From a virus (taxonomy: Duplodnaviria; Heunggongvirae; Uroviricota; Caudoviricetes), in IMG/VR virus record IMGVR_UViG_2870474514_000002: a stretch of DNA of 47,287 bases; one strand, 5' to 3'. The position numbers and the translations under genes were made by a program. Within the stretch, counting starts at the first letter, position 1. Every line of letters begins with the position of its first letter. A model generated the notes under the pieces. It did not search any database, was not told the DNA's origin, and saw nothing but the letters and a program-made list of their open reading frames with translations. Positions 14,301 through 25,341 of this stretch are shown in pieces.

Positions 14301-14609
14301 TTCATTAAGTTTACGGACAAGAAATTCATATTCTTCTTTATCAATAAGCCCTTTATCGAAAAATTTCTTTAATTCAGAATAGCGTCGACCGACAGTATCA
14401 ATTGCGGCACCAACTGGATCAATAGCTGCTTTTAATTTTGCGAGCGCGTTCTTCTCATCTTCTGTTGCCTTAGTCACTTTCCCTGCGCTATTTGCAGCAG
14501 TTTCCCCAGCCTGCGTCATTTTGACTAATGAGGAGGTCAGATTGTCAGCATTATTTTTCGCTCCAGTGCTATCAATAATTATTGCGAGACGCGAGGTTTG
14601 CTCTGCCAT
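11376..14609 (-). CDS. Tail tape measure protein
   Basis: 1077 aa, coiled-coil rich, with a hydrophobic glycine-rich central segment ([39 protein letters not shown]). Sits between G-T and M. The N-terminal 250 aa contain three copies of a roughly 60-aa IDPVGxA...EEL repeat. Confidence 0.9.
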
Positions 14610-14623
14610 TTATTAAAACTCCT

Positions 14624-14653
14624 GACAACAAAAAACCCACCGCGAAGTGGGTT
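14624..14653 (-). terminator. Hairpin plus U-run about 15 nt upstream of the tape measure start (terminator or attenuator)
   Basis: Stem AACCCAC / GTGGGTT with loop CGCGAA (14634..14653), followed on the minus strand by TTTTGTTG. Confidence 0.35.
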
Positions 14654-14774
14654 TCAGGCGACATAATAGTAGATATAGCGATTACGAGGCCACGCAATGC
14701 TTTTCTCCAGGAGCATCATCGATTTAATTAAAGACACCATCACATCTCTGTAACAGAGTGTACGTAATTAACAA

Positions 14775-15544
14775 CTACACACACTGCTCCTGAAAATACT
14801 GGTCATCCAGTGCAAAGATCACTGCTTCAAATTCATCGCGCTCAATCAATACCGGATGAGTGGCTAAATATTCATTTATCTCTGTCAGAGATAAAGGCAA
14901 AGGCACCCCAGCCATTCCAGCATAACGTCGGGCACGGGATATTACCGAATAGGCGTACAACAACTCCTTAAGCACCGGGTCTATTTCTGGTTCCGGTATC
15001 GGTGGCAACCTGAGTTTTTCTCGCTTCCATCTTGCCTTTTCCCCCCTTTCTCCCCCGAACTCCGATAACCACCGCTGGGCAGCTATGGCTTTTTTATCGT
15101 ATCCTGCTTCTGCTGCTCTTTACCCTGGGCGATGCTGGCTGCTTCTGCAAGGATCTGCCAGTACAACTCTGGATTCTGCTTAAGCAGCGCGATCCCTCGT
15201 TCTGCCGTATATTCCAGTGCAACCTCAACACCATTAACCAGTTCACCAACCCCTTTCCAGTCTTTCAGCAGATAACGAGCGGCATTATCAATGAGTAAAT
15301 CATCAACAGAATCCACCTCGGAAACCTTTGAAATATCAAACTCCTTCGTTCCGACGTGCAAACTGGCATCCATTTTCTCAATGTGGCGACGGATTAATGC
15401 ATTACGGGAGCGATACTGATCGTTATCGCTGCTTGCCACCAACAGTTTTAACCCGTCTACAGGTTTTAAGTCCTTCATTGGCGTAAACCAGCGTTCTCCA
15501 CCAATGATAATTTTCTGATTAAGAATAAACATCCATAACCTCAT
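14775..15544 (-). CDS. Tail assembly chaperone G-T fusion, made by a programmed -1 frameshift
   Basis: The G frame ends TIKKP-stop at 15083. From the slippery site at 15089..15095 the -1 frame stays open (AIAAQRWLSEFGGERGEKARWKREKLRLPPIPEPEIDP...) down to the stop at 14775. The 77-aa ORF in the track is the tail of this extension. Confidence 0.65.
15083..15544 (-). CDS. Tail assembly chaperone G (zero-frame product)
   Basis: 153 aa acidic ORF between the major tail protein and the tape measure. It ends 2 codons after the slippery site. Confidence 0.75.
   Translation of the reverse strand: MRLWMFILNQKIIIGGERWFTPMKDLKPVDGLKLLVASSDNDQYRSRNALIRRHIEKMDASLHVGTKEFDISKVSEVDSVDDLLIDNAARYLLKDWKGVGELVNGVEVALEYTAERGIALLKQNPELYWQILAEAASIAQGKEQQKQDTIKKP
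15089..15095 (-). other. Slippery heptanucleotide A AAA AAG (programmed -1 ribosomal frameshift site)
   Basis: The minus strand reads ACG AUA AAA AAG CCA UAG. The heptamer A_AAA_AAG sits 2 codons before the G stop, matching the conserved G/G-T frameshift geometry of long-tailed phages. Confidence 0.7.
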
Positions 15545-15592
15545 TCAATGCGTCCCCCTGTAGGGCAGTACCACAGGAGGAATAACGGAAAA

Positions 15593-16555
15593 TCAACTAA
15601 TCGCCTCAGCACTGGCTTTTGCGATCACGGCAGCCGGGGAATTTTTTTTTCTGGTTATCGTAGGTGCTTCATCTGCTGCGGTAATGCTCAATTGAACCTG
15701 GATAATGTCGCTATTACCCCCATCAGGCCATTCACCTGACACCTGAACCTTCGGGAAACTGAAAGTGTATGCCCCCTCTCCATTCGAAAGCGTGAAGCTG
15801 AACGGAACTGTTTCTCCAGTCAGTGTTTTACTCCAGATTTCCCACGCGGCTTTAGACCATGAAAGCGTCACCGTACCGGACGGTGTAAAAGTAGTCGGAA
15901 TATTTGCTCCTGCATAAGGCGAGCCAGTCCCGATACAACGCTGTGTCTGGAGTTTGTTATCGAACTGAATATCAAAACTGTCGATACAAAAACCGTTACC
16001 TCCGGCAACACCATTCAGGCTTACTGCTGAAACCTCCTTAAACGAATAACGTAGCTTTCCTGCACTATCCACAGGTTCGCCTTTGATAAAATTCGTATCA
16101 TCGGCCTTTGATTCCCAGTCCAGTCCGGCAAAGGTTACGGTCGCTGTAATATCGCCGTCGTTAGGGATCTGCATTTTCCATGAGCCAACCTGCGCTCCTC
16201 TGACGACAGAGGCAATTCCGACATCGGACGCATAGGTCGCCAGAGAAAATGTTATTCGCTCATTCCCCATTGTCAGAGAATCGCCTGACCATTCCGCGCC
16301 GAAACAGGATGCAAGAAAATCATCATGTTGACCCCAGCGAAATTTGGTACCAACATCACCGCCGACATCCACAGTGCCAGGCGTCGCCCCCTGACCCATC
16401 CGGGAGCCACCAATCTCATTATTTTCGCCTTTATTCTGGGTGGGTTTTACTCCCCAGCTTGTGCGTTTTAATAAACTCCAGTCACCACTTGCTGGCGTAG
16501 TGCCTGCAACCGTCTCCCGGATAAATGCCGAGATAACCTTTGCACCTGAACTCAC
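15593..16555 (-). CDS. Major tail (tube) protein
   Basis: 320 aa ORF immediately upstream of the G/G-T chaperone pair, Gly/Thr/Ser-rich and beta-rich. Called by position in the conserved module; not lambda V by sequence. Confidence 0.75.
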   Translation of the reverse strand: MSSGAKVISAFIRETVAGTTPASGDWSLLKRTSWGVKPTQNKGENNEIGGSRMGQGATPGTVDVGGDVGTKFRWGQHDDFLASCFGAEWSGDSLTMGNERITFSLATYASDVGIASVVRGAQVGSWKMQIPNDGDITATVTFAGLDWESKADDTNFIKGEPVDSAGKLRYSFKEVSAVSLNGVAGGNGFCIDSFDIQFDNKLQTQRCIGTGSPYAGANIPTTFTPSGTVTLSWSKAAWEIWSKTLTGETVPFSFTLSNGEGAYTFSFPKVQVSGEWPDGGNSDIIQVQLSITAADEAPTITRKKNSPAAVIAKASAEAIS

Positions 16556-22964: not shown

Positions 22965-24275
22965 TTAAATCCGAAGTGATGTGACTCTTCCGGTCGGTTT
23001 GACAATAGGGAATTGCTTAACGATGAAATAACCTCCGGCATCATTCGGGTGATCATTGCCAGATTTTTTATCAGGCTCCCCCTTATCATCCCAGACCTGT
23101 TGCTCCAGAGATTCGGCATATACCGGACAACGCTTCACATTAACTTTATAGCGACGCTCACCATTGGCATTGCAGAACATTGCATTCATTGAGTTAACGC
23201 GATCTTTTACTGGAGGGTTCGAGCTGTTCACCACAACGTTAAAACCTGCCTGCTTAAGCTGGGCTATATCCGTCGTACTTGCGTTACTTGATTTTCTGGA
23301 ATCTCCGGAAGCATCTGGATAAATATAAATCTCCCTCACTTTCCGGTAATCATGCCCGTCATACAGCCAGAAGCGTTCTTTAATGAGGCGGATCATATCC
23401 GGCGTATCGTAGGCATTGATGATTTCAGTTACCGCACATGGAAGCCCCAAACGCAGCACATGGACGATTCCCGCCATCTTTCCAACGTTAAAATCCATCC
23501 CAATATAAATCGGCTCCCCTAGCTGCTCCACTTCTTCGCAATTATTCAGTTTCCGGTCAAACTGATGGTAAACAGTACCACTTGTCAGGTTAGTAAACCG
23601 TCCTAGAAGATAGGCTTTAATCAGCTCTGGAGGGTATGATTCAAGAAGTGAAGGAATGTAATCTGCTGGCAGGTTCTTTTCATTATCGAAAGTAGATGCC
23701 TGCACCAGACCATACAGTGAGGCCAGCTCTGTTTTTTCACGCACGGCTTTAACAAACTGCTCGTAGACAAATTTGAATCCTTCCGGCGTGGTTGTAACGT
23801 CAATACCGTTGCGAAGTCCATCAATCTTATAACGCATACGCGCAATTATCTTGCGCCACGCCGTTCTGGCTTTTTCCTTCGGCAAAATGTCCAGTTCATC
23901 CACCAGCGCATTACCAATTTTGAAACCGACGATCGTTTGTGGCTTCTCCATCGATCTGCAGATAGTGGTTCCCCGATACTGGCGTCCGTAATAAAAGTGA
24001 ACCTCTTTATTTCCCTCATTAATTTTTACGTTCAATCCCCAGTCAGCAGCAACTTCTTCCACTGTAGGGTAAAAAATATCGCGAATTTGGGGATACGTTG
24101 GCGCAAAATATCCCTGATTTATACTTGGATGCTCCCAAATCCCCTTGCATATGCCGCCACACCCAACCCATGTTTTGCCCGAGCCAAAACCAGCAATATA
24201 GGCTTTAAATTTATGGGGCATTGAAAGAAATCGCGCCTGAGGCACATTAAGCGTCGGAGAGATCATCTTCATCAC
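22965..24275 (-). CDS. Terminase large subunit
   Basis: 436 aa with a Walker A-like GFGSGKTW near the N-terminus and acidic nuclease-type motifs in the C-terminal half. The start overlaps terS. Confidence 0.85.
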   Translation of the reverse strand: MMKMISPTLNVPQARFLSMPHKFKAYIAGFGSGKTWVGCGGICKGIWEHPSINQGYFAPTYPQIRDIFYPTVEEVAADWGLNVKINEGNKEVHFYYGRQYRGTTICRSMEKPQTIVGFKIGNALVDELDILPKEKARTAWRKIIARMRYKIDGLRNGIDVTTTPEGFKFVYEQFVKAVREKTELASLYGLVQASTFDNEKNLPADYIPSLLESYPPELIKAYLLGRFTNLTSGTVYHQFDRKLNNCEEVEQLGEPIYIGMDFNVGKMAGIVHVLRLGLPCAVTEIINAYDTPDMIRLIKERFWLYDGHDYRKVREIYIYPDASGDSRKSSNASTTDIAQLKQAGFNVVVNSSNPPVKDRVNSMNAMFCNANGERRYKVNVKRCPVYAESLEQQVWDDKGEPDKKSGNDHPNDAGGYFIVKQFPIVKPTGRVTSLRI

Positions 24276-25341
24276 TCCTTAATCTGGCATCAACCACATT
24301 AATATTGATCGCCACAGGCTGGGGATGTTCATTATCCTCCACCGTTTCGATCTCTTTGCGCAGCTTCTGGTTTTCTATTCTGCGCCGTTCAATTTCCAGT
24401 TCCTGTAGCCGCTTATCTGCACATAATGCCCCGCCAGCAGAAAGCAAACGCAACAATTCACGCCGGGCGGCAGCCTTATCCTCCAGCAGGATCTCAACAC
24501 CGTATTTTCCGAGCTTTGACCCTGCATATAATTGCCGCGCATCCCCATCAAGCAGTGTGGTATCAGCCATATAAAGCTGTCCCGTTCCCTCACCGCAGCA
24601 CTTCGGGCAATCAGGATTGGGTATGGCGTTATCAACAAAGCCGATGCCTCCATATTCCGGCTCGGGTTTACCATCTCTGGAGGCCTGTGCCGCAGCCTTA
24701 TCGAATTCTGCAATATCACGCCACTGGTAGAGATGATTCTCGCCCCAGCAATAACGGCAGTTAACACGGCGAAATTGTGCCAACTGATTGGGGTCGGCCT
24801 GGACAATGGCCATCAACTGGCTCACCAGTAAATCCAGGTCTGCGGTATAGCGTTTCTGGTACTGATTGCGGAAGTAGCTGATAGCACGATAAACCCTGGC
24901 ATTTCTAAGCATACGGCTGGCGTTGCTGTTAGCTGTCGCACCTTGCCCCTCATAACCAGCCAGTCGGTATGCCTCTGTCGGCTTTTTCCCCTGAGCAACC
25001 AACATGGCGAATTTTGCCTGCTGGTCAGAAATACCGAATTCATCGGGGCAGAACGAAATTTCTTCCGTGTCCCCCTCAATCAGGAGTGCATCGGATACAG
25101 CCTTTTTTTTCTGAGATTTTCCGTTCTGCCTTTGCGCAGTCTGCGCAGTTTTTTTTCGCGCACTTTTTTGCGCAGTTTTGCGCATTTCTTTCTGCGCATT
25201 TTTCGGAGTTTTTTTGATGTAACGACGGGCTGTTGCGTAGTTCAGTCCCCTTGCTTCACACCATGCCACCGGAGATATACCGGAGCGGGTGTATTCAGCA
25301 ATATACTCCTGCTGCAACGCCCCCCAGTCCGGTCTGCTCAT
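24247..25341 (-). CDS. Terminase small subunit (unusually long)
   Basis: 364 aa: an N-terminal HTH-like segment (ISPVAWCEARGLNYATARRYIKK), a Lys-rich linker, a central region resembling P27-type small terminase (DQQAKFAMLVAQGKKPTEAYRLAGYE), a Cys cluster (CRYCW...CPKCCGEG) and a C-terminal coiled coil. Confidence 0.6.
   Translation of the reverse strand: MSRPDWGALQQEYIAEYTRSGISPVAWCEARGLNYATARRYIKKTPKNAQKEMRKTAQKSARKKTAQTAQRQNGKSQKKKAVSDALLIEGDTEEISFCPDEFGISDQQAKFAMLVAQGKKPTEAYRLAGYEGQGATANSNASRMLRNARVYRAISYFRNQYQKRYTADLDLLVSQLMAIVQADPNQLAQFRRVNCRYCWGENHLYQWRDIAEFDKAAAQASRDGKPEPEYGGIGFVDNAIPNPDCPKCCGEGTGQLYMADTTLLDGDARQLYAGSKLGKYGVEILLEDKAAARRELLRLLSAGGALCADKRLQELEIERRRIENQKLRKEIETVEDNEHPQPVAININVVDARLRSDEDDLSDA

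Follow-up and report, generated by a model that had tools for sequence, protein, structure and literature searches.

A probable programmed -1 ribosomal frameshift in the putative tail assembly chaperone gene of a Rac-like siphovirus prophage

The stretch of DNA analysed here (the window) comprises 47,287 nucleotides of a virus of the class Caudoviricetes (IMG/VR record IMGVR_UViG_2870474514_000002). On its minus strand, between the genes for the major tail tube protein and the tape measure protein, lies a putative tail assembly chaperone gene, here termed G, that is followed by an open segment in the -1 frame, here termed T. The features of the locus are:

15593..16555, minus strand: major tail tube gene, upstream neighbour (Pfam Phage_tube_2, E 2.7e-31)
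15083..15532, minus strand: gene G, putative tail assembly chaperone of the YdaY family, 149 aa plus stop
15095..15089, minus strand: slippery heptamer A_AAA_AAG in zero-frame register, codon phase checked
14775..15089, minus strand: T segment, predicted -1 extension of G, 104 codons plus TAG
14775..15008, minus strand: 77-aa ORF with a TTG start, an ORF-calling artefact within the T segment
11376..14609, minus strand: tape measure gene, downstream neighbour (Pfam TMP_2, E 2.7e-81; TMP_4; Tape_meas_lam_C)

All frames were recomputed from the minus-strand read of positions 14600..15800. The G ORF (15083..15544, minus strand) ends in GAT ACG ATA AAA AAG CCA TAG, and the encoded protein ends in ...QDTIKKP*. 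The first A of AAAAAAG is the third base of the codon ATA, which places the heptamer in the X_XXY_YYZ register as A_AAA_AAG, and in the zero frame just one sense codon (CCA) separates it from the stop codon TAG. The -1 frame opens 10 codons upstream of the heptamer. The first codon after a -1 slip is GCC, which re-uses the G at 15089, and from there the frame continues for 104 sense codons (AIAAQRWLSEFGGERGEKARWKREKLRLPPIPEPEID...QEQCV, beginning with AIAAQRWLSEF...) until a TAG at 14777..14775, with ...TIKK/AIAAQ... as the predicted junction. The original prediction, made from the letters of the window, had stated that the G ORF ends shortly behind this heptamer, that a -1 shift adds 104 codons down to 14775 with the junction TIKK/AIAAQ, and that the 77-aa ORF with its TTG start is only the tail of this extension. 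All of this agrees with the recomputed frames, in which the 77-aa ORF makes up the last three quarters of the -1 frame.

As regards the extent of G, the coordinates given earlier for the ORF stand, but the start of the gene had to be moved from the ATG at 15544, which would add four codons, to the second ATG at 15532 (MFILNQ...). The latter is the start in 25 of 25 aligned homologues as well as in the record of Salmonella phage SPF_0923, and it is preceded by GAGG at a spacing of 6 nt. Based on this start, G is predicted to have 149 aa and the G-T fusion 252 aa in total, and not 153 and 256 aa.

The order tube, G, T and tape measure on one strand is shared by the relatives. PHROG 313, a profile of 258 positions named 'tail assembly chaperone', is matched by G at 13-149 (E 4e-46), and the extension gives a weak match to it at 173-246 (E 0.0099) with no matched stretches. 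The extension matches PHROG 1189, a family of unknown function, with an E-value of 1.4e-36, and its match to Pfam Phage_TAC_18 is sub-threshold (E 4.9e-4, 20.6 bits versus a cut-off of 27). Pfam PF27119 (Phage_YdaY) is precomputed on all G homologues; this family is newer than the Pfam version used, and G was assigned to it via the homologues. None of G, T and the fusion is represented in NCBIfam. Neither G nor T matched Pfam Phage_TAC_2 or Phage_tail_T, whereas lambda's own proteins match these models with E-values of 9e-62 and 2e-14, and a comparison of the G alignment with lambda G by hhalign resulted in a probability of 0.1%. A structure model of G, which is of low confidence (pLDDT 62), gave no significant fold match in comparisons with, for example, the tail assembly chaperone of HK97 (PDB 2ob9). 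Since no significant similarity to lambda was detected and the weak structure model is without a significant match, the designation of G as a putative tail assembly chaperone rests on synteny and on the PHROG and annotation names.

The bare string A_AAA_AAG is not enriched in the window, where 23 copies were found compared to 14.4 expected, and at least 23 copies occurred in 7 of 100 shuffles. A long open -1 frame past the stop is also nothing unusual: 20 of the 71 ORFs of at least 100 aa in the window possess one, and such frames are common in a tightly packed genome because the next gene often overlaps. In register, however, A_AAA_AAG occurs in only 2 of these 71 ORFs, and G is the only one in which it lies inside a -1 overlap. 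Since the string is not enriched and the combination is rare, the case rests on register, position and conservation. The other in-register heptamer is located at 25102..25108 on the minus strand, within the ORF 24247..25341 (minus strand). The -1 frame closes there after 8 codons, and recoding at this site was rejected, since with so few open codons a slip would only shorten the protein.

The conservation of the slip site was followed in 8 loci from species-representative genomes and 80 loci from viral contigs, and in further loci for distant homologues. In the first round, 92 of 92 loci possess A_AAA_AAG in register and a T homologue in the -1 frame. These include Citrobacter prophages (G 76-80% and T 61-72% identical), in which the codons flanking the heptamer vary (ACG ATA versus ACC GTA or ACC GCA) and the distance from the heptamer start to the zero-frame stop is 10, 28 or 112 nt, so that the tail of G is P, PSKRKSG or 35 aa long. 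Overall, the zero-frame stop is found at 7 to 112 nt from the heptamer start. The heptamer is also kept in register in the loci L094-L097. In relatives from Klebsiella, Serratia and two metagenome contigs with a G identity of 57-65%, an in-register A_AAA_AAG is again accompanied by T in the -1 frame, and one of these relatives has its zero-frame stop directly behind the heptamer. The conservation of the heptamer in related prophages, which had been proposed as a check of the original prediction, is thus found throughout the first-round loci and in L094-L097.

Some relatives deviate from A_AAA_AAG at this site. Locus L098 carries GTG GGA AAG, that is G_GGA_AAG, the heptamer of the lambda G-T frameshift, at the identical codon position. 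This replacement of Lys-Lys by Gly-Lys, from one canonical slippery heptamer to another, would be hard to explain other than by selection for slipperiness. Locus L093 and Erwinia phage Gungnir39 possess C_GCA_AAG followed at once by TAA, Pseudomonas phage Aurca01 possesses G_GAA_AAG and Acinetobacter phage TCUAN1 G_GGA_AAG, in each case with T in the -1 frame. In the more distant phages Gungnir39, Aurca01 and TCUAN1, with an identity of 31-55%, the A_AAG core is kept. Listed by locus, C_GCA_AAG occurs in L093 and L101, G_GAA_AAG in L100 and a slippery variant also in L102, and the constant element over all sites is A_AAG. The variants A_AAA_AAG, G_GGA_AAG, G_GAA_AAG and C_GCA_AAG-stop would constitute a natural series for relating the heptamer and the adjacent stop codon to the G:GT ratio.

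The -1 frame itself is conserved from the first codon past the heptamer on, where the window and the Citrobacter prophages share the peptide AI(A/E)AQ(R/K)W(L/I)(S/N)EFGGE.GEKA.W.R.KL.LPP.PEPEID. When the 26 codons past the heptamer were compared between the window and 12 relatives, 18-24 of 26 residues were identical in the -1 frame in 11 of the 12 relatives, and there were no stop codons in any of them. The exception is L101 (9 of 26 residues identical), in which an insertion breaks the ungapped comparison. Over the same 26 codons, the zero frame yields 4-19 identical residues and the +1 frame 2-19; stops occur in both. The summed pairwise substitutions per codon position, which stem from pairs that are not independent, amount to 35/16/109 upstream of the heptamer, with an excess at position 3 of the zero frame, and to 66/58/141 downstream, with the excess at position 3 of the -1 frame. 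Counted by alignment column, the 25 codons past the heptamer show no significant third-position bias (17/17/23, p 0.53), and we therefore rely on the amino acid identity per frame and on the absence of stops.

Alternatively, T could be a separate small gene that is started from the TTG at 15008 or from a GTG or ATG further inside, perhaps by ribosomes re-initiating behind the stop of G, with the heptamer being merely a pair of lysine codons. We consider this very unlikely. Gene callers and RefSeq do indeed give an ORF of 77 aa (TTG) or 61 aa at this place, and the C-terminal Lys-Lys of G could be conserved for protein reasons alone. However, in none of 13 sequences does the part of the -1 frame from its upstream stop to the heptamer contain an ATG, GTG or TTG. 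The earliest start codon within T is the TTG at codon 28, which is present only in the E. coli lineage and absent from Citrobacter, Klebsiella and Serratia, and to which an AGG abuts directly with zero spacer. The first conserved ATG is codon 59 of T, where it lies inside the conserved domain and lacks a Shine-Dalgarno sequence. The 27 codons between heptamer and TTG are nevertheless conserved and free of stops in 13 diverged sequences, while no start codon would give access to them. Moreover, a requirement for Lys-Lys would permit AAG AAA or AAA AAA just as well, and it leaves the exchange to Gly-Lys in G_GGA_AAG unexplained. The databases call the T ORF with lengths of 60 to 138 aa, corresponding to 27-97% of T, which suggests that there is no real start. 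With these varying call lengths and the unconserved TTG, the earlier advice against annotating the 77-aa ORF as a gene of its own holds.

The change of frame from G to T could in principle occur during transcription instead of translation, if RNA polymerase inserted or skipped an A within the A6 run. For E. coli RNA polymerase, appreciable slippage takes place on runs of about 8-9 or more A, and the six A present here fall short of this length. Furthermore, the relatives with G_GGA_AAG, C_GCA_AAG and G_GAA_AAG, which have only 3-4 A at the site, keep the arrangement of G and a -1 T, so that re-pairing of tRNAs fits the pattern and transcriptional slippage does not. The A6 run at the site is the feature that speaks for slippage of the polymerase, for which the slippage of bacterial RNA polymerases on A/T runs, reviewed in PMC5009743, provides the precedent. 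We regard this explanation as very improbable in comparison with a ribosomal frameshift.

It is highly unlikely that the two frames go back to one continuous G-T gene of an ancestor which was disrupted by a 1-nt indel in a defective prophage. Homopolymer runs are prone to indels, and the Rac prophage of E. coli K-12 holds an evident remnant with a truncated ydaY and a truncated ynaA, both of which would be in line with decay. In contrast, 92 of 92 first-round loci possess the two-frame layout, and it recurs in separate genera, isolated phages included (SPF_0923, the vB_EcoS series, Klebsiella phages and Gungnir39); both frames are under purifying selection. The sole in-frame fusion found is P0001 (240 aa, E. 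coli, NB16F79_39920), in which T is in frame with G. It is the exact translation of the window minus 35 nt, and thus derived from the two-frame form by a deletion between direct repeats. These are 10-nt repeats (GCAGAAGCAG) just upstream of the heptamer, at 15148..15139 and 15113..15104 on the minus strand, 35 nt apart. The P0001 allele, which would make GT but no free G, looks derived and is probably defective. It also shows that the -1 frame encodes a continuous protein.

What the comparisons show, at the level of sequence, are two overlapping frames under selection whose only link is a conserved slippery site, at the place where tail chaperone genes are typically located. Taken together, the locus, part of a Rac-like siphovirus prophage, very probably is a tail assembly chaperone gene with a programmed -1 ribosomal frameshift, whereas we infer the slippage itself, its efficiency and the binding partners. 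Most ribosomes would read G to its stop and produce the 149-aa chaperone. A minority would slip back by one base, when a single tRNA-Lys species, bound to AAA and AAG, re-pairs with AAA AAA, and would go on in the -1 frame to produce the 252-aa G-T fusion. By analogy to lambda, the G part might coat the tape measure protein and the T part might recruit the tube protein; the G:GT ratio, fixed by the slip frequency, would then let the tube polymerise around the tape measure, with neither G nor GT being present in the finished virion. Accordingly named by analogy, the predicted partner of the G domain is the tape measure protein and that of the T domain the tube protein.

Elements that might stimulate the frameshift were also sought. 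RNAalifold revealed no conserved 3' RNA structure in 11 diverged sequences covering the heptamer plus 80 nt (-5.6 kcal/mol, no compensatory pairs). A hairpin directly behind the heptamer in the window (-11.8 kcal/mol) was rejected, as it is no better than in shuffled sequences (z +0.5). A Shine-Dalgarno-like AGGA located 6 nt before the heptamer is present in most Enterobacteriaceae but lost in L093 and L094, and is part of conserved Gln-Asp/Glu codons; a role as stimulator is not supported for it. Since there is no conserved 3' structure and the hairpin does not exceed shuffled sequences, the shift efficiency probably depends on the heptamer alone. Presumably, this would result in a low-level, heptamer-dependent shift as in lambda.

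The G/G-T frameshift of lambda is the closest known system (Levin, Hendrix and Casjens 1993; Xu, Hendrix and Duda 2004, 2013, 2014; all as cited in PMC5009743). According to the account of lambda in that source, the tape measure protein is bound by G and by the G part of GT, the T part interacts with the tube protein and initiates its polymerisation, and the ratio set by slippage matters. The gene order of lambda, V (tube), G, T and H (tape measure), is the same as in the window. As in lambda, T is a -1 frame that overlaps G at its 3' end and lacks a start of its own, the heptamer ends in A_AAG, and no RNA stimulator is evident. The exact lambda heptamer G_GGA_AAG is carried by the relative L098, while the window itself has A_AAA_AAG. 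There are also clear differences. No sequence similarity to lambda is detectable: lambda G belongs to Phage_TAC_2 and lambda T to Phage_tail_T, whereas the G of the window belongs to PF27119 (Phage_YdaY) and its T has only the sub-threshold match to Phage_TAC_18. Moreover, the zero-frame stop is located one sense codon past the site here.

With respect to the heptamer, the site of the window resembles dnaX of E. coli (gamma/tau), which uses the identical A_AAA_AAG, read by the single E. coli tRNA-Lys (PMC5009743). Unlike the window, where no conserved downstream structure was found, dnaX possesses an upstream Shine-Dalgarno-like element and a downstream stem-loop and reaches about 50% shifting. 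In addition, the shifted product of dnaX is the shorter one, whereas here it would be the longer one. Several properties by which the G/GT class is recognised (Xu et al. 2004) are found at the locus: a position between the tube and tape measure genes on the same strand, a second ORF that overlaps the first and has no initiation site of its own, an in-register slippery sequence within the overlap, and conservation of the slip site and the two-frame layout across diverged relatives. The original prediction had named this as the conserved G/G-T arrangement of long-tailed phages, and synteny, the match to PHROG 313, the conserved heptamer and the conserved -1 peptide support this assignment.

The 1.2-kb region around the site matches Salmonella phage SPF_0923 with 100% identity and nine E. 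coli vB_EcoS phages with 97.9%, and the module occurs in 1073 of 5426 complete E. coli genomes (about a fifth). In E. coli K-12, the Rac prophage shares 100% DNA identity with the window over 14600..15434; heptamer and T segment are completely preserved there, as is the beginning of the tape measure gene. Its genes ydaY (119 aa) and ynaA (tmpR) are what truncation has left of G and of the tape measure gene. The locus of the window is the intact counterpart of this shortened ydaY-ynaA region. Whereas the window contains a complete tail module, K-12 lacks the tube gene and has a truncated tape measure gene and, at a deletion junction, a replaced 5' third of G. The remnant retains a shortened ydaY, the A_AAA_AAG site and all of T. 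It is unlikely that these three form an intact recoding cassette which, if transcribed, would yield a YdaY-T fusion in the best-studied bacterium by a programmed frameshift left unannotated in the records inspected.

The module is also present in several isolated phages. None of the GenBank and RefSeq records inspected carries an annotation of ribosomal slippage. In the RefSeq records inspected (L002, L003), 'protein YdaY' begins at the internal TTG 15442 (119 aa), even in intact prophages; this gene model is carried over from the 5'-truncated gene of the K-12 Rac prophage. The T segment appears in the inspected records as a hypothetical protein of 77 aa or is not called at all, and it is unannotated in the K-12 record. 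We found no description of a ydaY frameshift in the literature searched, to which neither the survey of A_AAA_AAG in E. coli cited in PMC5009743 nor Xu et al. 2004 belonged. The locus is a case of a well-known phage feature in a family, YdaY, for which the records inspected leave the slippage unannotated. Its main value lies in the annotation and not in any new biology of frameshifting: a corrected annotation would give the YdaY family (PF27119) a function, namely that of a tail assembly chaperone, and would drop a spurious small ORF.

Some further observations concern the neighbouring genes. The tube protein of the window has 320 aa and contains only the Phage_tube_2 domain; the tube proteins of the L093-L098 modules (Klebsiella, Serratia and metagenome contigs) have 389-390 aa and an extra C-terminal Big_2 (Ig-like) domain. 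The tube gene also contains an A9 homopolymer at 15642..15650 (minus strand), 17 codons ahead of its stop, where a change of frame would lead to a stop after 15 or 8 codons. The relatives have A9, A8 (with a broken frame, 5 loci) or A7GC (of the same length) at this position. This run looks like a hot spot of indels or sequencing errors rather than a recoding site.

Between the stop of T and the start of the tape measure gene there is a gap of 165 nt, which includes a terminator-like hairpin at 14632..14655 (minus strand) with a 10-bp stem followed by a T run. In the relatives, the same gap contains inserted genes: in L004 it is occupied by one for an outer membrane protein of the Ail/Lom type, and in L097, L093 and L098 by an ORF of 110, 165 and 227 aa, respectively. 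The gap between GT and the tape measure gene thus looks like an insertion spot for extra 'moron' genes.
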